From an uncultured Methanosarcinales archaeon (GTDB lineage: Archaea > Nanobdellota > Nanobdellia > Woesearchaeales > ARS49), in NCBI GenBank assembly GCA_964354285.1, contig CAYGYR010000001.1, positions 518,424 through 582,423 on the forward strand: a stretch of 64,000 nt of DNA, read 5' to 3'. Below are positions 1 through 61,220 of the stretch, one piece after another. The notes beneath the pieces were generated by a model. The model had not been told where the DNA came from, ran no database searches, and saw only the letters and a list, made by a program, of their open reading frames with translations. The position numbers and the translations under genes are program-made. Position 1 is the first letter of the stretch, and the number at the start of each line of letters is the position of its first letter.

Positions 1-1671
1 TGGGCACTGCAGAATGCCTTGAAATATGGTGGAAAAGCAAACATGGGTGCTGTGATAGGCAAGATACTGTCAGATCATCCTGAGCTAAAGGCAGAAATGA
101 AAGCAGTGAGCAAAGACCTGCAATTAATAATCACAGAAGTAAACAAGCTCGGAGTAAAAAAACAAGAAGAGGAATTAAAGAAAATAGCTCCTGAGCTTCT
201 TGAGGAAAAGCCAAAAGCAGAAAAGAAAGAGCTGAAAGACCTGCCTGATGCAATTGCTGGAAAATTTGTTGCAAGAATGGCACCATCACCATCAGGGCCG
301 CTGCATATTGGCCATGCTTACGGAGTTCTAATCAATTCAGAATACGCAAGAAAGTATCATGGAAAATTCATTTTAAGAATAGAAGACACTAATCCAGAAA
401 ACATCTACGAGCCAGCATACAAGCAGATTCCAGAAGATGCAAAATGGCTAACAAAAGACAACATAGGAGAGATTGCAGTGCAGTCAGACAGGCTCGGGCT
501 GTACTACGATGTTGTTGAAAAACTTGTTGGCCAGGGAAATGCATACATCTGCACATGCAACCCAGATATCTTCAGGGATTTGATGGTTGCAAAAAAAGCA
601 TGCCCGTGCAGAGATTTGCCAATAAAAGAGCACCAGAAAAGATGGGCAAAGATGTTTGGGGAATTCAAGCCAGGAGAGGCTGTTGTAAGAATAAAAACAG
701 ATGTCCAGCACCCAAACCCTGCAATGAGAGACTGGCCTGCAATGAGAATAAATGACCACACGCACCCAAGGCAGGGAACAAAACACAGGGTATGGCCTTT
801 AATGAATCTTTCAGTCGCAATCGACGACCACCTCATGGGTGTAACACATGTCATGAATGGAAAAGAGCATGCTGACAATGCAAAAAGGCAGAAATACATT
901 TTTGATTACATGGGCTGGACTAGGCCAACATACAAGAACTGGGGAAGAATCAATTTCATAGGCCTAGAGATAAGCAAGACCAAAACAAAACAAAAAATAG
1001 AATACGGAGAATATGACGGCTGGGATGACATAAGGCTGCCATTCCTTCCTGCAATGAGAAGAAGAGGATACCAGCCAGAAGCATTCATAAAATTCGCAGT
1101 TGACATGGGAGTCACGCTAAATGACAAAACCGTGACAGGAGAGGAGTTCTTCAAAAACCTGAACTCATGCAACAGGGAAGTTATAGAGCCGACATCAAAC
1201 AGGCACTTCTTTGTCAATGATCCTGTTGAGATAACAGTCGAGGGAGCTCCTGAACAGAAAGTTGAGCTGGACATACATCCTGACTATCCTAAGCGCGGCA
1301 AGAGAAAATTCAGCTGCACTGATAAGTTCTATGTGTGCAAAGAAGACATTGCCAAATTAAAAGACGGAAAACTATACCGCCTGATGGACTGCCTCAACTT
1401 CAAGAAAAAAGGAGACAAATACACTTTTGTAAGCAATGAATATGAGGATTACAAAGACAAAGGAGAGGCAATAATACACTGGCTTCCTGTCTCAAAAGAT
1501 TTAGTGAATGTTGAGGTTTTAATGGAAGACAAGACAACATTCAAAGGCCTTGGGGAATCAGGCATGGCAAAAATAAAAGCAGGAGACATTGTGCAATTGG
1601 AAAGAAGATTCTTTGCAAGGCTTGACTCAAAAGAAGGAAATTTGCTGAAGTTCTGGTTTACGCACAGGTAA
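1..1671 (+). CDS. gltX: Glutamyl-tRNA synthetase, archaeal/eukaryal class I type; N-terminal appended helical domain; ORF open at window start (5' partial)
   Basis: HIGH motif PSPSGPLHIGHAYG and a class I catalytic core; the reading frame continues upstream of nt 19 to the window edge. Confidence 0.85.
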   Translation, partial: WALQNALKYGGKANMGAVIGKILSDHPELKAEMKAVSKDLQLIITEVNKLGVKKQEEELKKIAPELLEEKPKAEKKELKDLPDAIAGKFVARMAPSPSGPLHIGHAYGVLINSEYARKYHGKFILRIEDTNPENIYEPAYKQIPEDAKWLTKDNIGEIAVQSDRLGLYYDVVEKLVGQGNAYICTCNPDIFRDLMVAKKACPCRDLPIKEHQKRWAKMFGEFKPGEAVVRIKTDVQHPNPAMRDWPAMRINDHTHPRQGTKHRVWPLMNLSVAIDDHLMGVTHVMNGKEHADNAKRQKYIFDYMGWTRPTYKNWGRINFIGLEISKTKTKQKIEYGEYDGWDDIRLPFLPAMRRRGYQPEAFIKFAVDMGVTLNDKTVTGEEFFKNLNSCNREVIEPTSNRHFFVNDPVEITVEGAPEQKVELDIHPDYPKRGKRKFSCTDKFYVCKEDIAKLKDGKLYRLMDCLNFKKKGDKYTFVSNEYEDYKDKGEAIIHWLPVSKDLVNVEVLMEDKTTFKGLGESGMAKIKAGDIVQLERRFFARLDSKEGNLLKFWFTHR

Positions 1672-1672
1672 A

Positions 1673-2008
1673 ATGGCATCTGCTTTTGCTTTAAAATTTA
1701 TTTTCTTTGGACTGCTTGCGCTTGCTGTCGCTCTTGAAGTTGTTGGAGACATATTTTTCAAGAAATGGTCCTTAGATAATAAGAATATTCTCTTGATACT
1801 TGGCTTAATCATTTATTTCATTGGAACAATCTTCTGGGCAGTCTCACTGAAATATGAGTTCTTGTCAAAAGCAATCTCTATATTCACAGTGCTTAACCTG
1901 ATCATTGTTGTATTAGCAGGAGTGATAATATTCAAAGAGGATTTATCTTGGATAAACAAAATAGGGATTGCGTTAGGAATATTGAGCGTAATACTGATAG
2001 AGATTTAA
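1673..2008 (+). CDS. Small 4-TM membrane protein, SMR/DMT-like
   Basis: 111 aa with four hydrophobic helices; starts 2 nt after the GluRS stop. Confidence 0.45.
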   Translation: MASAFALKFIFFGLLALAVALEVVGDIFFKKWSLDNKNILLILGLIIYFIGTIFWAVSLKYEFLSKAISIFTVLNLIIVVLAGVIIFKEDLSWINKIGIALGILSVILIEI

Positions 2009-2948: not shown

Positions 2949-3026
2949 ATTTTATTTTTTTCTGCCAAAAAATTTATAAACTCCTTCTGACAGAGTAAGG
3001 GAATATTGGGTTTTGAGGTGAAAAAT

Positions 3027-3188
3027 ATGCTTGTAGTCAAAGCAAAGATAAAAGAGATTGCCGGTGATTTTAATGTAGCTGGCGATTTTGCAGATGCCCT
3101 TAACAAGAAAACAGAGCAGCTGGTAAAAGATGCTCTTGACAGGGCAAAGGCAAACAACAGAAGAACAGTTATGGCAAAAGATATATGA
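3027..3188 (+). CDS. Small histone-fold-like DNA-binding protein (start at internal ATG after the GAGGTGA Shine-Dalgarno)
   Basis: Helix-loop-long helix pattern; the ending RRTVMAKDI resembles archaeal histone RKTIKAEDI; only about 53 aa, so alpha3 appears absent. Confidence 0.3.
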   Translation: MLVVKAKIKEIAGDFNVAGDFADALNKKTEQLVKDALDRAKANNRRTVMAKDI

Positions 3189-3189
3189 T

Positions 3190-3744
3190 TTATTTTTGAA
3201 GCCTTAATTTTTCTTTCAGTGTTTCTATTTTTTTCTGCACAGCAGAGAGCCTTGCTTTAGGGAATTTCTTGTTCTTCTTAGCTTCATTATATATTTTCTC
3301 AAGAGTCCTTATCTGCTGGGCAATATCACTCACTTCTTCCCTTTTCGTGCCAGCCTCTGACTTTATTTTTTGCTCAAGCTCCCGTATCCTTTTCTGCCTT
3401 GCATCACGCGTATCCATGTATCTTCCAAGCTTTTTCTCAAGAAGGTCTATTTTTTCTGCAATTGACTTGTGCTCGCTTTCCTCACTTATCTGCGCAGTGA
3501 GTATCCCTTTTTCCTTTCTGATAGTGTCTGCAATGTGCCTCTCAAGCTCCTCAACGTGCTTCTTGACAGACTCTGTGCTTATTTTCTTTAGCTGCGATAA
3601 TTTTATCTCAAGCTTTCTTCTTGCAAAATCTCTTTCCTCTATTTTTTTCTTTGATTTCCCGAGGTAATAAAGCAAACGCCTTGCTTTGCCTAGGTCTGTC
3701 TCTTTCTCTATATTGTCCTGAAATATGTCATCTTCAGAAATCAT
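3190..3744 (-). CDS. Charged coiled-coil protein
   Basis: K/E-rich heptad-like sequence; 4-nt overlap with the upstream gene. Confidence 0.4.
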   Translation of the reverse strand: MISEDDIFQDNIEKETDLGKARRLLYYLGKSKKKIEERDFARRKLEIKLSQLKKISTESVKKHVEELERHIADTIRKEKGILTAQISEESEHKSIAEKIDLLEKKLGRYMDTRDARQKRIRELEQKIKSEAGTKREEVSDIAQQIRTLEKIYNEAKKNKKFPKARLSAVQKKIETLKEKLRLQK

Positions 3745-4795: not shown

Positions 4796-6427
4796 TTATT
4801 CCATTCCAGGATGTCTGCCAGGAGGCATGCCAGGCATTCCGCCTTCAGGCATCTTTCCGCCTGCAATAACATCATCAATCCTCAGAATCATCTGAGTGAC
4901 TTCTGCTGCAGATGTTATTGCCTGGGTCTTTATCTTCAATGGCTCAATGACTCCAGCTGCCCAGCTGTCAACAACTTTTCCTTTGAAAACATCAATGCCA
5001 GCCCATTTCTTTTTCTGGTCATGAGCTGCCTTCATCTCTGTAAGAACATCAATCGGGTCAAGCCCTGCATTTTCCGCAAGAGTCCTTGGGACGATCTCAA
5101 GGGCGTTTGCAAAGCCAAGCACTGCAAGCTGCTCCCTTCCAGAAAGGCTGTTTGCAAACTTTCTCAACTGCCTTGCAACCTCTATCTCAGGAGCGCCAGC
5201 CCCTGCAACCACTTTTCCAGTCCTCAAAGCAGCAGCAATATCACCAATAGCATCTGTCATCGCCCTTCTTGCCTCTGCAACAACATGCTCTGTCCCGCCT
5301 CTGACAATAATAGTTACTGCTTTCGGATTCTTGCAGCCAGTGATGTACATCATCTCTTCATCACCGATTTTTTTGCTCTCAACAAAACCAGCCCTTCCAA
5401 GGTCTTTCGCGCTTAAATCATCAAAGTGTGTCACAATCCTTGCAGCTGTCGCCCTTGCAATAGCTTCCATGTCTGATTTCTTCACTCTTCTGGCAGCCAT
5501 TATGCCTCTCTTTGCAAGGAAATGCTGAGCCATGTCATCAATCCCTTTCTGGCACAATACAACATTTGCCCCTGACGCAGTAATCTTCTCAACCATGTTA
5601 AGGAGCATCTTCTCTTCCTGCTCAAGGAATGCCTGCATCTGCATAGGATCTGTTATTGAGATTTTAGCATCAATCTCCGTGTCTTTTATCTCCACAGCAG
5701 AATCAATAAGAGCAATCTTCGCATCACTAACCAATTTTGGCATGCCAGAATGCACAACCTCTTTCTCAATGACTATCCCGTCAATTAATTCAGTGTCCTC
5801 AACAGACCCGCCGACTTTTTTCTCAAGCTTTATGTTTTCCTTGTCAAAGACAAATCCTTTATCACTTTTGTCAATGACTTTCTTGACTGCCTTCACAGCA
5901 ATATCACTCAATATTTCTTTTGCAGACTCAGCACCTTTTCCTGTGATCGCGGTCATTGCAATCTTTTTCAGTGTCGGGTCATCTTTCTCTGATATCGTCT
6001 CGCTGATTTCATTAAGAATCTCAATTGCCTTGCTTGCAGCCTGCCTGTATCCTTTTGCAATCACAGTCGGATGAACATTCTGGTCAAGCAATTCCTCTGC
6101 CTGCTTCAAAAGCTCTCCTGCAATTATCACTGCAGTTGTTGTTCCATCGCCTATCTCATCTTCTTGAGTCTTTGCGATCTCAACAATCATCCTTGCAGCA
6201 GGATGCTCAACATGCATCTCCTCAAGAATTGTCACGCCGTCATTTGTCACAGTGATGTCTCCCATGCTGTCAACAATCATCTTGTCCATGCCTTTTGGGC
6301 CAAGAGTTGTGCGCACAGTCTCTGCAACAAGCCTTCCAGCCATGATGTTGTTTCTCTGGGCACTCCTTCCGGTGTTCCTTTGAGTCCCTTCTGGTAATAT
6401 GAATATTGGTTGTATTTCCCTTGCCAT
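4796..6427 (-). CDS. ths: Thermosome subunit (group II chaperonin)
   Basis: [16 protein letters not shown], and a GGMPGM C-terminal tail. Confidence 0.95.
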
Positions 6428-7822: not shown

Positions 7823-7865
7823 AGCAAATAAATAGGAATTAAACGGCGGTTTATAAAGATTTTGA

Positions 7866-8069
7866 CCAAACTTTGGGAAAGTTTAACCAAACAAAGTTTG
7901 GTGAGACCCCAAAAACGCTTCGCGTTTTTGATGGTTTGATCAAAATGCGCTCCTCGTTCAGGCTCGAGAAGCATTTTATCGGCTGTTTTTCTTGCGAAAA
8001 ACAGAGGTTCTACTCTTCTGTCGGAAACTTGTAAAGTTTCCGAGCACCGTCAGAAAACGTTGTTTTCTG
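7866..8069. repeat. Array of six perfect short hairpins in a divergent intergenic region
   Basis: AAACTTTgggAAAGTTT 7868-7884; CCAAACaaaGTTTGG 7887-7901; AAAAACGCttcGCGTTTTT 7911-7929; CTGTTTTTCttgcGAAAAACAG 7983-8004; CGGAAACTTgtaAAGTTTCCG 8022-8042; CAGAAAACgttGTTTTCTG 8051-8069. Confidence 0.7.
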
Positions 8070-8159
8070 AGGTCTCGCCTTCACGATGTCGCGCAGACGT
8101 TGATTGTGGCTCATGAAGTCTTGCAAACATTTTTAAATCCAATATTGTTCTTGATTTTT

Positions 8160-33716: not shown

Positions 33717-34166
33717 TTAAAACTTTTGATTTATAAAGAAGAGAATTAATGCAATAACAAGAAATGAAATCACGCAGATCGTAATCTCTTTTTTGTTTTT
33801 GAGAACCAGGCTTCCTGTCGGAAAGCTGTAAAGAAAAATTGAGGCAGAGACTGGCAGAAACATGCCTGTCAATGATGCCAGGAAAAAAACAAAAGCAAGG
33901 AAAGCATAAGTAATCGCGTGGCGCATCTTTTCATAATAATACAAATAAATGAAAATAATCAGCCCTCCTGCCCACATATAATGGATATTTGTCCTGTTGG
34001 CATACATCAAAAAAACAATTGCGAGCGTGAAAAGAATTTTCTGCAGCCAAACAAAATATTTTTTTCCTGGATTTAGTTCTTCTTTTGCAAAATATCCGAT
34101 AACAGCTCCGCAGATTAAGCCAAGGGCTGTGATTAAAGCAATCAAGGAATAATTCAGGATTTCCAT
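33717..34166 (-). CDS. Membrane protein
   Basis: Four or five TM helices; its start overlaps the end of the Dph2 remnant. Confidence 0.4.
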   Translation of the reverse strand: MEILNYSLIALITALGLICGAVIGYFAKEELNPGKKYFVWLQKILFTLAIVFLMYANRTNIHYMWAGGLIIFIYLYYYEKMRHAITYAFLAFVFFLASLTGMFLPVSASIFLYSFPTGSLVLKNKKEITICVISFLVIALILFFINQKF

Positions 34167-34408
34167 TCAGAATGCCCCCACTGGATCAATAAGTCAACAC
34201 CAAGGCCTTCAACTTGCTTTGGGATATCACACGCCCCAAAACAAGAGCCAAGCCAGATGATTACCTCTGCACCTGTTTTTGACTTCAGCTCATCTGCTAT
34301 GCTTTTTGCTTCTGGCTTCAGGCCATCTGGCAATTGGATACAGACCCTTCTGGCTTTTGCTTTCTTTATTTCCTCTGCTGCTCTTTCAAGCTCTAAATCG
34401 TATTCCAT
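34154..34408 (-). pseudogene. dph2: N-terminal remnant (84 aa) of diphthamide synthesis protein Dph2
   Basis: VCIQLPDGLK...IIWLGSCFGACD...LLIQWGHS matches the Dph2 N-terminus, but the ORF stops after 84 aa where about 330 are expected. Confidence 0.5.
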
Positions 34409-34469: not shown

Positions 34470-34499
34470 ACTGTGCGAAGCACCTGACTGAGGATTTTA
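34470..34499 (-). repeat. Partial copy of the ~125-nt structured element family (5' module only)
   Basis: Minus strand AAAATCCTC...GGTGCTTCGCACAG matches the 5' ends of the elements at 48810 and 60789. Confidence 0.35.
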
Positions 34500-40367: not shown

Positions 40368-40460
40368 GCCCCTGTAGTATAGCTTGGATAGTACGCGAGG
40401 TTGCGGACAGCGTGTAAATGCAAAAACCTTGAAACTGGGGTTCAAATCCCCGCAGGGGCG
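40368..40460 (+). tRNA. tRNA-Arg (GCG) with an anticodon-loop intron of about 19 nt
   Basis: Acceptor GCCCCTG/CAGGGGC; anticodon stem CGAGG/CCTTG around TTGCGG plus intron; T-loop TTCAAAT. Confidence 0.7.
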
Positions 40461-47485: not shown

Positions 47486-47998
47486 GTGATTATCGGTGGC
47501 AATGATAGCAAACGACTTTCTTTAGATGCAACCATAGAAAAATTTGATGCCTGTTATAACTGTAAAGGTAATTGCTGCAAAACAAAACAAGTGGTTATTC
47601 CTCTCTCGGATTATGAATTTGAAGCAATCCCAAAAAAGTTGACTGCTATTTTTGAAGGATTTCCAATAATGCAAAGGACAGACAATGGTTGCAATGCACT
47701 GACAGAAAAAGGATGCTCGATATTTGATATAAGACCTTTTTATTGCAGAATGTATCCTATAAAAATAGTCCCTGTAGGCAAGTCAGATCTATGGGATTCT
47801 TACCATATCGATGGATTTGCGTTTGTATTAAATCATTGTGGCGGGAGAGAGATAGATTTTGCAACTAATATAGAGAAAATACTGAAAGAGTTAGAAAAAG
47901 ATAAAGTTTATTTCAATAGGCTTTATGAGGTAACAAGAAAGTATGAAGAATTAGTAATTTATTTTGATGATTATGCTGCATATACATTGATTGAGTAA
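47486..47998 (+). CDS. YkgJ-family (UPF0153) Cys-cluster protein
   Basis: CYNCKGNCCK motif and CRMYP. Confidence 0.5.
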   Translation: MIIGGNDSKRLSLDATIEKFDACYNCKGNCCKTKQVVIPLSDYEFEAIPKKLTAIFEGFPIMQRTDNGCNALTEKGCSIFDIRPFYCRMYPIKIVPVGKSDLWDSYHIDGFAFVLNHCGGREIDFATNIEKILKELEKDKVYFNRLYEVTRKYEELVIYFDDYAAYTLIE

Positions 47999-48030: not shown

Positions 48031-48789
48031 ATGTTATATTTTATCGGCCTAGGATTGAATGATGAGAAAGACATCTCAGTCAGAGGGCTTGAGATAGCCA
48101 GGAAAGCAGATGTTGTTTATTTGGAAAACTATACTGCTGTTCTTAATTGTCATCTTAATTACCTGGAGAAGCTCTATGGCAAAAAACCAATACTTGCAGA
48201 CAGGGAGATGGTTGAGAAAAATCCAGAGCAGACAATCCTGAAAGATGCAAAAGACAAAGAGGTTGCATTCCTTGTTGTAGGAGACCCATTTGCAGCAACA
48301 ACACACATTGACCTTCTGATGAGAGCAGAGAAGATGAAGATAGAGACAAGGGTAGTGCATAATGCATCTGTGATGTCTGCAGTAGGGGTCACAGGGCTTC
48401 AGGTGTATAAGTTCGGCAAGACAACCAGTGTTCCTTTCCCTGAAAAAGGATTTGAGCCAGAGACGCCTTACGATGTGATTAAAGAAAATCAGAAAATAGG
48501 GCTTCATACATTGATACTTCTTGACTTAAGGCCGAAAGAGAGTAAATTCATGACAATAAATGATGCAATAAGCTACCTTCTTAAGATTGATTTAAGAAGA
48601 GGAGAGAGAGTATTTACAGGACAGACACTTTGTGTCGGATGTGCTAAGATTGGATCTTTAGATCAGAGGATAAAAGCAGGAAAAGCAAGCGAACTTCTGA
48701 AGTTTGATTTCGGTCCAGGGATGCAGTGCCTTATAGTTCCAGGCAAGATGCATTTTGTGGAGGAAGAAGCGGTTAGAAGATTTATGTGA
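48031..48789 (+). CDS. dph5: Diphthine synthase (Dph5)
   Basis: MLYFIGLGL...ADVVYLENYT tetrapyrrole-methylase-like N-terminus characteristic of Dph5. Confidence 0.85.
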   Translation: MLYFIGLGLNDEKDISVRGLEIARKADVVYLENYTAVLNCHLNYLEKLYGKKPILADREMVEKNPEQTILKDAKDKEVAFLVVGDPFAATTHIDLLMRAEKMKIETRVVHNASVMSAVGVTGLQVYKFGKTTSVPFPEKGFEPETPYDVIKENQKIGLHTLILLDLRPKESKFMTINDAISYLLKIDLRRGERVFTGQTLCVGCAKIGSLDQRIKAGKASELLKFDFGPGMQCLIVPGKMHFVEEEAVRRFM

Positions 48790-48809
48790 GTTCTGTTTTT
48801 TGTTTTTGT

Positions 48810-48936
48810 TAAATCCTTATTTGGGTGCTTCGCACAGAGACAATTGCATATTTGAGTATTTAAATCGGCAAAATATACTCGCGAAGCAGCTTTGCTGCTG
48901 AGTCTCACTGTCCGAAGGACCTCAGCAAGGATTTAC
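48810..48936 (+). repeat. ~127-nt structured element (copy B) with three hairpins and 9-bp terminal inverted repeats; candidate ncRNA or MITE-like repeat
   Basis: TAAATCCTT...AAGGATTTA ends; hairpins GTGCttcGCAC, AGCAGCtttGCTGCT, GTCCgaaGGAC; conserved GACAATTGCATAT block shared with the copy at 60789. Confidence 0.5.
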
Positions 48937-48966
48937 AAAAAAGTTTATATACTCCCTTACTAATAA

Positions 48967-49338
48967 TTGAGCTTTATGGCACTCAGCAAGAAGCACAAAT
49001 TTGTTCTTTATGCGCTTTACCAGTATCTTACTGAAGCAAATAAATTATTTACCCATCAGTCTCTTGAGATGTCTGTATCAAAGAGTGTCTTTATCGGAGC
49101 GCTGAAGAAGACAAAGATAGCTGACAAAAGCGAAAGGGCACTCTACAGGAACCTCGAGATTCTTGAAAAGAAGAAGCTGCTGACGTATGAGAACAAATTC
49201 CTGAAGCCGACTGAGAAAGGACTGAAACTGTTTGAGGCAATGAATCAGGAAATATTTCCATTCATACATGCGGTTGATGTAATAAAGAAAGATGCGCTGT
49301 CGATGAGCAAGAAAGCGCAGACTTATTTCAAGCAATAA
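48967..49338 (+). CDS. Hypothetical protein
   Basis: ORF only. Confidence 0.35.
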   Translation: MSFMALSKKHKFVLYALYQYLTEANKLFTHQSLEMSVSKSVFIGALKKTKIADKSERALYRNLEILEKKKLLTYENKFLKPTEKGLKLFEAMNQEIFPFIHAVDVIKKDALSMSKKAQTYFKQ

Positions 49339-51074: not shown

Positions 51075-51647
51075 ATGGATTTTAAAAACAATTGCAGGAA
51101 GTGCCCAAAAAACACGCATTGCTGCATTTTTAAAAACTCAGGATTTGTTTTTGTAGGCATCAAAGACGCAAGAACAATCAAGAAGCAAACTAAAAAAGAA
51201 TACTGCTTCTTTTTGGATTATTCACCAATTTCAAAAAAAATTGTTAATTGCTTAAAACACGATGATCCTGCTCTTGAAGGAAGATTAAGATATTCCCAAT
51301 TAGATAAAAATAACCGCATTCTCAGATTGAAAACCAAAAAAGACAGCAGATGCCTTTTCTTAAATAAGCATAACTTGTGTGATATCTATGGCATTAGGCC
51401 GAATATATGCAGAATATTCCCTTTTTGGGCAGTGAAGCTGATTAATGGCAAAATTAAGATTATACCTCACGATGTTCAATCTAAGTGCAAAATTATAACA
51501 GCATTAATTAAAAAACAAAGAGATAATATTGATGAAATTTTAAGTAGAAAAGAAAAAATCGAAATCAAGAAAACAGTTAGAAAGATTAAAGATGAGAATG
51601 TCTTCTATAAGAACAATATTCTGAAATTTATAAAAGATATAACCTGA
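51075..51647 (+). CDS. YkgJ-family Cys-cluster protein (paralog of 47486..47998)
   Basis: CRKCPKNTHCC and CRIFPF motifs. Confidence 0.45.
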   Translation: MDFKNNCRKCPKNTHCCIFKNSGFVFVGIKDARTIKKQTKKEYCFFLDYSPISKKIVNCLKHDDPALEGRLRYSQLDKNNRILRLKTKKDSRCLFLNKHNLCDIYGIRPNICRIFPFWAVKLINGKIKIIPHDVQSKCKIITALIKKQRDNIDEILSRKEKIEIKKTVRKIKDENVFYKNNILKFIKDIT

Positions 51648-55073: not shown

Positions 55074-55979
55074 GTGAGAGTCCAATTTAAATCATCAAAA
55101 CAAAGAGAAGTAATTCTGAATTTTAAACAGAATACTGATTTAACTTGGCAAGAACTTGCGGATTATTTGCATGTCAGAAAATCAGCATTATTAACCTGGT
55201 ATCATGAAAAAACTTTGTTGCCGTATGCAATATACATAATATTAGATAAAAAAGGACTGTTCAAAGAGCACATTCTAGAACTTAAAAATGATTGTTGGGG
55301 CCAAAGCAAAGGAGGAATTGCATCAACAGGAACAACAAAAGAAATATCCTTGCCAAGGCCTTGTACAGATTTAGCTGAATTAATCGGCATTGTATTAGGT
55401 GATGGTAATATCCATGAATACATTCAGACTAAAAAAATTAGGACATATATGCTAAGAATAGCGGGAGATTCGAGAAAAGACAGAAATTATCTTGTGACTT
55501 ATGTTGCTCCGCTCTGCGAATGCTTGTTTTCAATCCAGCCAAAATTTTTATATCAAAAACAGAGCAATGAGCTTTTTGTTATATTACACAGCAAGAAAAT
55601 CATTGAGTTCTTTAAAAAAATGGGCTTAACGCCAGGTAACAAAATCAAGAATCGATTAAATATTCCTGGCTGGGTACTCGAAGATGAGACATATCTTCGA
55701 GCATGTTTGCGTGGTTTAATAGATACAGACGGATCTATTTTCAGAATGTCAAATAGAGATCCGCAATTATTGAGAATTAATTTTAGAAATGTAAATAGCT
55801 CTTTGCTTGAAACTGTTTATAAGTCTTTTATTACGTTAGGATTTAAACCGGCACTTGCAAATAATGTAGTTTACTTATCTAGGAAGCAAGATATAGTAAA
55901 CTTTTTAAAAGGCATAGGTTTTTCTAATAGTAAGCATAGGTTAAGGCTTAAGAAGTTCAAAGGCAGCCCTGTAGTGTAG
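55074..55979 (+). CDS. Free-standing double-motif LAGLIDADG homing endonuclease with an N-terminal HTH-like region
   Basis: LIGIVLGDGNI and LRGLIDTDGSIF motifs; the last 15 nt overlap the tRNA-Gln 5' end. Confidence 0.8.
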   Translation: MRVQFKSSKQREVILNFKQNTDLTWQELADYLHVRKSALLTWYHEKTLLPYAIYIILDKKGLFKEHILELKNDCWGQSKGGIASTGTTKEISLPRPCTDLAELIGIVLGDGNIHEYIQTKKIRTYMLRIAGDSRKDRNYLVTYVAPLCECLFSIQPKFLYQKQSNELFVILHSKKIIEFFKKMGLTPGNKIKNRLNIPGWVLEDETYLRACLRGLIDTDGSIFRMSNRDPQLLRINFRNVNSSLLETVYKSFITLGFKPALANNVVYLSRKQDIVNFLKGIGFSNSKHRLRLKKFKGSPVV

Positions 55980-60788: not shown

Positions 60789-60913
60789 TAAATCCTCCTT
60801 TGGGTGCCAGAGGCACAGTGACAATTGCATATACTTTTCTTAATCAGCACAATATATTTGCGAGCAGCAAAACTGCTCGCCTCTCTGTCCGTAGGACCTC
60901 AACAAGGACTTAA
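60789..60913 (+). repeat. ~125-nt structured element (copy C), same family as 48810..48936
   Basis: Shared TAAATCCT...GGGTGC...GCACAG.GACAATTGCATAT...CTGTCCG.AGGACCTCA.CAAGGA; stems differ with compensatory changes (GTGCCagaGGCAC; GCGAGCAGcaaaaCTGCTCGC; GTCCgtaGGAC). Confidence 0.5.
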
Positions 60914-60950: not shown

Positions 60951-61220
60951 TTAAAGCAATCCCCTGACGTCGTCTATTCTTATGGCAACATCCTGGCCTT
61001 TCTTTGTGAGTGCCAAGAGCTTCAATCTTCCCTGCTTGTCGAAATTTATCAGGCCTTCGCGTTCCATCTGCTGAAGTATCTTTACAACATGAGAATACGT
61101 GCAGTCAATGTGTTTTGCAAGAGAAGACGCATAAATTTCAGATTTTGCATTTTTCATCTCGACCAGCATCATTGCCGGTTTCTCCCGAAAAAAGACCTTG
61201 AAGATTTCTTTGTTTTTCAC
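60951..61220 (-). CDS. Winged-helix transcription regulator
   Basis: SSLAKHIDCTYSHVVKILQQMEREGLI HTH. Confidence 0.5.
   Translation of the reverse strand: MKNKEIFKVFFREKPAMMLVEMKNAKSEIYASSLAKHIDCTYSHVVKILQQMEREGLINFDKQGRLKLLALTKKGQDVAIRIDDVRGLL

Follow-up and report, generated by a model that had tools for sequence, protein, structure and literature searches.

In this study, we analyzed a 64,000-nucleotide stretch of an archaeal genome (contig CAYGYR010000001.1 of assembly GCA_964354285.1, positions 518,424 to 582,423), hereafter called the window, and focused on a short repeated element that lies in the spacers between its genes. The copies of this element probably form a family of non-autonomous DNA transposons of a Woesearchaeota (DPANN) clade, similar to MITEs (short for miniature inverted-repeat transposable elements). 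We favor this reading because the copies are dispersed and have inverted ends, because the empty site carries a single TA, and because strains differ in the element, nesting occurs, solo ends are found and segments are replaced between alleles. The unit is short and non-coding, is bounded by terminal inverted repeats and occurs at unrelated loci.

The window contains two full copies, 124-126 bp in length, and one solo end:

48810-48935, plus strand: copy A, the full element including the flanking TA (48810-11 and 48934-35); covariance model R1, 82.2 bits, E=1e-18.
60789-60912, plus strand: copy B, the full element including the flanking TA (60789-90 and 60911-12); 81.1 bits.
34471-34499, minus strand: copy C, a solo left end that lacks the central block (TAAAATCCTCAGTCAGGTGCTTCGCACAG); 11 bits, with an exact 14-mer in common with A.

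Copies A and B share two long exact blocks. The first, GCACAGNGACAATTGCATAT, is present at exactly two places in the window (48832-48851 and 60813-60832), where chance would give 0.02 matches, and the second, CTGTCCGNAGGACCTCANCAAGGA, likewise at exactly two (48908-48931 and 60885-60908), against an expectation of 0.00. Copy C consists of AAATCCT and the exact 14-mer GGTGCTTCGCACAG, both of which are also present in A, and ends after GCACAG; about 5e-4 such matches are expected by chance per 128 kb. The stop codon of dph5 (PF00590) is at 48789, and copy A begins 21 nt later, in a spacer bounded by dph5 on one side and by the promoter of the open reading frame (ORF) 48976-49338 on the other. 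Copy B begins 35 nt after the stop codon of rps15 (60754) and sits between convergent genes, rps15 and a winged-helix gene (60951-61220, minus strand). Copy C is flanked by a gene for an N-terminal fragment of Dph2 (34154-34408, minus strand) and by a tRNA-Asn gene (34602, plus strand). An earlier first-pass annotation of this DNA had reported two elements directly 3' of plus-strand genes and a partial inverted copy beside a Dph2 remnant. All three copies proved to be real, and both full copies lie where it had placed them. The 84-aa ORF beside copy C matches Dph2 (diphthamide synthesis) at profile positions 1-56 of 302 only, and the adjoining 149-aa ORF (33717-34166, minus strand) has no Pfam match. 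The window has an intact dph5, but its Dph2 gene is a remnant or has been split.

The unit spans about 125 bp, and its imperfect terminal inverted repeats of about 35 nt each enclose a small hairpin. The ends are laid out as TA, AATCCTTnTTGGGTGC-loop-GCACAGAGAC ... GTCTCnCTGTCC-loop-GGACCnCAnCAAGGATT, TA. The left part common to the copies starts with TA and the left inverted repeat, whose hairpin H1 has a stem of GUGC or GUGCC, and continues with AGAGACAAUUGCAUA, a short stretch that varies, and CUGUUnAUCnGCAnAAUAUAAnCG. The right part comprises hairpin H2, GAGnCUnnnUGU, hairpin H3 (GUCC stem), the right inverted repeat and TA. In copies A and B, the parts are located as follows:

48810-48840, plus strand: left terminal inverted repeat of A, which encloses H1; the full arms are 38 nt long and 76% complementary.
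48825-48835, plus strand: H1 of A, GTGC-ttc-GCAC (GTGC 48825-28, GCAC 48832-35).
48836-48881, plus strand: central segment of A (AGAGACAATTGCATA ... AAAATATACTCG), conserved in sequence across the family, with no consensus secondary structure.
48882-48902, plus strand: H2 of A (CGAAGCAGC-ttt-GCTGCTGAG), whose base is a tandem G.A/A.G; 7 of 9 pairs covary across 13 copies.
48905-48935, plus strand: right terminal inverted repeat of A, which encloses H3 and is matched as an inverted 5' module.
48910-48920, plus strand: H3 of A, GTCC-gaa-GGAC (GTCC 48910-13, GGAC 48917-20).
60804-60816, plus strand: H1 of B, GTGCC-aga-GGCAC.
60860-60880, plus strand: H2 of B.
60887-60897, plus strand: H3 of B, GTCC-gta-GGAC.

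The inverted-repeat arms of copy A extend over 48803-48840 and 48905-48942. The covariance model matches the right ends of A and B as inverted left ends (in A, 48900-48926 on the minus strand). Within one element, the left and right terminal hairpins differ by one compensated swap, G-C to C-G, and the variants of the terminal hairpin stem stay complementary (GTGC/GCAC, GTGCC/GGCAC, GTCC/GGAC and TCCC/GGGA). The terminal inverted ends that had been noted at first pass were thereby recovered, and H1, H2 and H3 of A and B read as they had been described. A small peptide was ruled out as the product of the element, since the copies differ by indels whose lengths are not multiples of three, and the units contain stop codons.

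Comparison of the rps15 locus among relatives points to insertion at TA. These loci were retrieved through the rps15 protein, whose closest named homologues are Woesearchaeota proteins; the window itself is from an archaeon of this group. In the locus L049, where rps15 is 85% identical to that of the window, the element is present at the same place. The gap between rps15 and the next gene is 196 nt in the window, 47 nt in L051 (rps15 74% identical) and 26 nt in L053 (70% identical). The flanks of L051 and L053 align to the window up to 60777 and 60781 and then again from 60934 and 60964, an interval that exactly encloses the element. In L051 and L053, the empty sites read ...TTTATTT-TA-GAAGAA..., with a single TA, and the occupied site in the window reads ...TTTTC-TA-[AATCC...GGACT]-TA-AAGAAGAA. 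As far as sequence comparison can tell, one TA at the empty site and TA-element-TA at the occupied site indicates a duplication of the TA target. A flanking direct repeat with a single copy at the empty site was thus found at one AT-rich locus, with boundaries partly guided by TA. TA is present on both sides in the 7 copies in which both ends can be placed (A, B, L003, L024, L029, L032 and L055). The 14-20 kb syntenic loci L051 and L053 contain no full copy, and L051 has only an inverted solo end (17 bits).

According to the mechanism that we propose, a transposase encoded elsewhere would bind both ends and insert the unit at TA. Because the target is TA, this enzyme would most likely be of the IS630/Tc1-mariner kind (DDE), acting in trans. 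The target TA would lie within a T-rich or A-rich spacer, between the oligo-T terminator of one gene and the next promoter or terminator, and would be duplicated on insertion.

It is also conceivable that the elements resemble REPIN or BIME units, in which two inverted short hairpin repeats joined by a linker are spread by an HUH enzyme (RAYT or IS200-IS605 TnpA-like) acting on single-stranded hairpins. Each end has a small hairpin with a conserved flank whose complementarity is kept by compensated changes, the elements make mosaics with other small hairpin modules, and a G.A motif specific to the plus strand, described below, suggests a single-stranded intermediate. However, the ends are true inverted repeats with their flanks included, and the empty-site comparison indicates TA duplication, while IS200/IS605 and REP/RAYT systems make no target duplications. 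In addition, no Y1/HUH transposase domain was found in the ORFs of the window. We consider this explanation very improbable. Ends of the IS200/IS605 type were themselves rejected on the basis of the end sequences and the true inverted-repeat arrangement.

The element differs between closely related strains, as is usual for a transposable element of the kind proposed here. At rps15, the window and L049 have an occupied site, L051 and L053 an empty one; alternative alleles exist next to identical rps15 genes, and L012 has its own allele of copy A. Strains with 100% identical rps15 carry either a 125-nt allele (window, L054 and L056) or a 231-nt allele (L055, L057 and L059). The longer allele has another sequence in the left half of its interior. 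It also holds a 94-nt repeat, designated 'family 3', which is inserted between the left end and H1 and has a TTTGG direct repeat on its flanks. L012, whose flanks are 95-98% identical to the window, has 229 nt in place of 40 nt of the interior of A. This insert includes a nested inverted copy of another repeat, designated 'family 2', which is also present in the window. In L025, a large insertion of family 3 lies within the H2 loop of an element of the present family (family 1). The nested repeats are located as follows:

L055 1182-1275 (also in L057 and L059) and L025 1891-1967: 'family 3' repeat of 94 nt with three hairpins (CGAACTTTGAA...GTTCG, GTGCAGCcttGtGCTGCAC and CTAGC...GCTAG).
Window 7938-8023, L012 518-599 (plus strand) and L012 1657-1739 (minus strand): 'family 2' repeat of about 85 nt; one of the L012 copies is nested in its A allele.

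The possibility that the element and its nested modules are introns excised by the archaeal splicing endonuclease at bulge-helix-bulge motifs was rejected, because the flanks form a continuous helix without bulges. The lack of bulges and the TTTGG direct repeat at the nested family-3 insertion argue for insertion at the DNA level. A stretch similar to family 3 is present in L006 at about 2870-2960, and the closing stem of family 2 also has a tandem G.A (UGAA/UGAA). The window copy of family 2 lies in a 280-nt intergenic stretch of many hairpins (7850-8130; fold z-scores of -5.4 for the plus and -5.7 for the minus strand), for which Rfam gave no match.

Loss and decay of the element were observed as well. 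In L051, all that is present beside dph5 is a solo left end in the opposite orientation. Two genomes with 80% DNA identity and about 90% protein identity at the SepF-ZPR1 locus both retain the element there. Its interior is only about 60% identical between them, and H3 is decayed in one, while the flanking terminator and promoter are conserved. L004 has lost the right third of the element, and its flanks are still 80-90% identical. Copies at a locus thus persist for a while, swap segments (gene conversion), truncate to solo ends and receive other small repeats. The replacement of segments between alleles implies recombination among copies.

Scans of public sequences yielded about 15 further loci, all from Woesearchaeota. 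The scans covered public genomes and metagenomes and required 18 exact bases of the left block. Relatives found by this exact pattern lie on 3 contigs of one Woesearchaeota metagenome-assembled genome and on about 12 metagenome contigs; the other exact-pattern matches lacked the rest of the element and were attributed to chance. A genome can hold several copies: there are two full copies and one solo end in the 64 kb of the window, and copies on 3 contigs of that metagenome-assembled genome. The genes beside the copies are unrelated housekeeping genes, including those for SepF, ZPR1, acylphosphatase, arginine decarboxylase, rRNA methyltransferase, rpl37e and UPF0147. The covariance model added one diverged copy, in L013. 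There, a diverged left module (TTAATTCCTTATGAGGGTGCCAAGGGCACAGAAACAATTGCATT; 1628-1691, plus strand) lies 12-20 nt 3' of a perfect TATA-like box (CTTTATATAG). No other copy has a promoter-like motif that is well placed, and downstream of the module the L013 copy does not resemble the family. With Rfam 15 at gathering thresholds, the window and 14 loci gave tRNAs only, and at E<=10 copies A and B gave noise only. A scan of viral sequences returned chance-level matches only (15 bits or less), and phage and plasmid collections contained no match to the element.

The invariance of the left block in these copies is largely an effect of ascertainment, since the scans demanded 18 exact bases of it. 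Copies that were reached through neighboring proteins or through the model read GACATTTCCATA, AACATGTCCATA or AAACAATTGCATT at this position. The 'conserved single-stranded block' of the first-pass annotation is borne out as two exact blocks shared by A and B, but it has no consensus structure and varies in independently found copies.

The folding of the element was compared with that of shuffled sequences. Both copies folded better than the shuffles on either strand, with z-scores for the plus and minus strand of -5.3 and -4.8 in copy A, and of -2.3 and -4.3 in copy B. Across 13 copies, H2 changes on both sides in 7 of its 9 pairs. The observed values were reached by none of 500 shuffles, and the signal was lost when the partners were slid. 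The stem of H1 is invariant in this set, and compensated variants occur elsewhere, such as GUCC/GGAC in the L051 copy. No consensus structure was found in the central 45 nt or so across the copies of the family. The first-pass annotation had read compensatory stem changes from copies A and B. There is little true covariation between these two alone: H1 differs by one additional C-G pair, the base of H2 by an exchange of tandem G.A for Watson-Crick pairs, and H3 in its loop only. The covariation test with more copies that the same annotation had suggested did find compensatory rather than random change in H2. As judged from these alignments, the family-wide covariation is convincing, and for H2 only.

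The base of H2 takes one of two forms, Watson-Crick pairs (CGAG/CUCG) or a tandem G.A/A.G (CGAG/CGAG), and no intermediates were seen. By direct reading, 8 of 14 copies have the tandem G.A and the remainder have Watson-Crick pairs. Since the G.A form would be a pyrimidine-pyrimidine clash on the opposite strand, the constraint acts on the plus strand. Some constraint is thus placed on a single-stranded plus-strand form, which could be an intermediate of transposition or replication or a read-through RNA. It is also possible that the stems stay complementary without selection, through templated repair within palindromes, and a palindrome in DNA could remain complementary with no part played by RNA. 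Folding energies gave a mixed answer as a test of strand: the plus strand folds better by 2-5 kcal/mol in 5 of 6 full copies, whereas copy B strongly favors the minus strand (-44.3 against -32.6 kcal/mol on the plus strand). The bigger insertions are located in loops or junctions only (L012, L025 and L055). Two other folds were considered and dropped. A long rod fold of copy A needs pairing between the loops of H1 and H3, which are non-complementary in B, L022, L029 and L032, and also has two conserved mismatches, so that local hairpins are preferred. A helix around the central block could be drawn as GAGTAT/ATACTC in A, GCGA/TCGC in L004 and GCGG/CCGC in L025, at inconsistent positions.

No promoter at a fixed distance was found upstream of the copies; the best TATA-like matches lie at -16 to -60, and L055 has none. 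No plus-strand oligo-T terminator follows the element in A or B, where an A-rich run is found instead. Oligo-T tracts are a signal for termination in archaea. Such tracts face the elements from both sides: T6 and T5 follow dph5 before copy A, T7 and T5 follow rps15 before copy B, and the minus strand has a T6 or T8 tract beyond the right end of A and B. Given what is known of archaeal termination, A and B thus lie in gaps where little transcription would be expected.

These observations bear on whether the element works as RNA. Bacterial ERIC, REP and Correia repeats act in cis through read-through 3' untranslated regions (UTRs). The present elements might likewise be part of the read-through 3' UTR of the upstream gene, in which the hairpins would stabilize, process or insulate the mRNA; such a role does not conflict with an origin as a transposon. 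In most cases, the element begins 20-60 nt past the stop codon of a gene that runs in the same direction, and where the neighboring genes are in tandem, 6 of 7 copies have the orientation of the upstream gene. The tandem G.A at the base of H2 is favorable on the plus strand only, most full copies fold better on that strand, and H2 covaries. Transcripts of MITEs with roles of this type have been documented (PMC10969869). On the other hand, oligo-T tracts separate the stop codon from the element in both A and B, copy B is much more stable on the minus strand, and the 6:1 orientation bias is not significant. Moreover, the L051 copy at the dph5 locus is inverted, several copies adjoin divergent gene starts (L013, L025 and L036), and the interior is replaced between near-identical strains. 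We regard a cis-acting RNA as a doubtful explanation.

Another explanation is that the copies are paralogous genes for a trans-acting structured small RNA, in which the 45-nt 5' module binds a protein or target, the hairpins serve as a scaffold and mobility is secondary. This explanation would account for the high conservation of the left module, for the covariation of H2 with Watson-Crick pairs interchanging with tandem G.A, and for the confinement of insertions to loops or junctions. It would also fit the retention of the element at the SepF-ZPR1 locus and downstream of rps15 in the relative with 85% identical rps15. However, the conservation of the 5' module is largely due to ascertainment, and the copies found otherwise differ there. 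The fixed-distance promoter, the plus-strand terminator, a consensus structure in the central region and a match to an Rfam family are all lacking. In addition, relatives whose rps15 is 70-74% identical lack the element at the rps15 site, and the right third is lost in L004 despite well-conserved flanks. A trans-acting RNA is thus quite unlikely. In a bolder form of the idea, which we put forward as a long shot, the copies would be stable plus-strand small RNAs whose 45-nt 5' module and G.A hairpin H2 bind a host protein or target, and would constitute a self-spreading family of regulatory RNAs. If this were true, they would form, together with the nested hairpin modules (families 2 and 3 and the tRNA-adjacent modules), a mosaic system at the RNA level peculiar to reduced DPANN genomes.

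Specific classes of RNA were also tried. A superficial resemblance of the left module (5' stem-loop, ACAGAGA and ...GCAU) to U6 snRNA was dismissed as coincidence, since the block varies in independent copies and there is no other support. H/ACA or C/D small RNAs were rejected because no boxes are present; an ACA follows the 3' end in copy A only. The first-pass annotation had favored a functional RNA over a decaying MITE. The part of this claim that stands is the maintenance of the hairpins; the other part does not agree with the hallmarks of mobile DNA.

Several observations weigh against the interpretation as MITE-like mobile DNA. No transposase domain was found in the roughly 60 ORFs of the window, and neither a transposase nor an autonomous element with matching ends was found beside the copies examined in other loci. 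Several copies are without a recognizable right end (L004, L013, L016 and L034). The TA duplication is known from one locus with two empty-site relatives in very AT-rich sequence, and the boundaries of the element elsewhere were placed partly with TA in mind, not blind. The empty sites could stem from loss of the element rather than from the absence of gain. The strong covariation of H2 fits an RNA role equally, the high conservation of the left 45 nt suits such a role too, and so does the orientation of the copies relative to upstream genes, which does not reach significance. Even so, a MITE-like transposon family remains the interpretation that we think probable.

Other mobile or variable features were observed around the same genes. 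Upstream of dph5, the window has a 170-aa ORF with a CxxCxxCC domain (47486-47998) that is absent in L012, which carries 165 nt with a family-2 repeat in its place (505-670); a paralogous ORF is present in the window at 51075-51647. Directly after dph5, where the window has copy A, L053 has a free-standing ORF similar to LAGLIDADG-type homing endonucleases (4981-5694, minus strand). Hence, the spacer between dph5 and tRNA-Gln differs in its insert in each relative. Another free-standing ORF of this type is found in the window at 55449-55979 (plus strand). In addition, a 425-aa ORF beside tRNA-Arg (40368-40460) matches all four regions of bacterial sigma-70 factors (PF04542, PF04545, PF04539 and PF00140; 40522-41799, plus strand). 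This gene for a bacterial-type sigma factor in an archaeal genome was presumably acquired horizontally.

Some tRNA genes in the window and the related loci are also unusual. Two tRNA genes of the window are over-long (88 and 93 nt), like intron-containing archaeal tRNA genes. In L006, a class II (Leu/Ser-like) tRNA gene that was missed by the tRNA model is split by several large insertions (3007-3250). In L025, a tRNA gene (2090-2356), read directly as tRNA-Ser (GCT), follows two partial duplications of its 5' end. Each duplication has a hairpin module (ACAGAA...TTCTGT) attached to it, along with a conserved leader, CTCACTTACATTC, which abuts the mature 5' end of the tRNA in L025; a similar leader precedes the tRNA in L006.

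DPANN genomes are very small and gene-dense, yet in the window and its relatives at least three families of small structured repeats are found in the spacers and in each other. The repeats differ between strains with identical ribosomal protein genes and can therefore serve as strain markers. They probably also cause breaks in metagenome assemblies. The elements offer a concrete case in which to ask how mobile DNA can last in a streamlined genome, which here means landing in the untranscribed gap that separates terminator and promoter. The preserved hairpins and the G.A restricted to one strand raise the question of whether these structures were shaped by the chemistry of transposition or co-opted as RNA signals.

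TA is the target of Correia, IS630 and Stowaway elements. The present elements share many features with TA-duplicating MITEs such as Correia of Neisseria and Stowaway of plants, namely a size of about 100-150 bp without an ORF, inverted ends of tens of bases, TA on both sides, AT-rich intergenic sites, a predicted stable fold of the transcript, nesting and variation between strains. The likeness is one of features, not of sequence similarity to any described element. Unlike those MITEs, the elements described here have a hairpin inside each inverted repeat, left and right hairpins that differ by a compensated pair, a covarying H2 and a DPANN host. A preference for AT-rich intergenic sites, stably folding transcripts and insertion into each other have been described for MITEs in general (PMC10969869).

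Similarity to the ERIC/IRU and REP/BIME repeats of enterobacteria is also evident. These include imperfect intergenic palindromes of about 127 bp located by gene ends and mosaics of hairpin modules. The longer size variants of ERIC arise from insertions at fixed internal sites. Those repeats are bacterial, however, and REPs are spread by RAYT without target duplication, whereas the present elements have a TA duplication and are separated from the upstream gene by oligo-T tracts. Effects at the RNA level on neighboring mRNAs have been documented for the enterobacterial repeats (PMC10969869). The integron attC site, in which the imperfect palindrome found at a gene cassette's 3' end lies between R''/R' core sites (RYYYAAC / GTTRRRY), was considered and rejected: the ends of the element are TAAATCC / GGATTTA without GTTRRRY, and its neighbors are core housekeeping genes, not cassettes. 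A K-turn is defined by a 3-nt bulge next to tandem sheared G.A pairs. The tandem G.A/A.G at the base of H2 is common to K-turns and the L7Ae-binding RNAs of archaea, but here it forms a symmetric loop (CGAG/CGAG) with no 3-nt bulge, and this assignment was likewise rejected.

Among archaea, the MITEs SMN1 and SM3A of Sulfolobus are likewise non-autonomous, bounded by inverted repeats and flanked by direct repeats (PMC3718332); in contrast to the present family, they have known partner insertion sequence elements (ISC1733 and ISC1058). A published census of MITEs places a Woesearchaeal genome, at 105 MITEs per Mb, among the archaea in which these elements are densest (PMC11602168), and the family may already be catalogued in that census without description. 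Unusual in the present family are the compensated hairpins within its inverted repeats and the G.A hairpin that covaries, and also the way in which several families of small repeats are densely nested in a streamlined DPANN genome.

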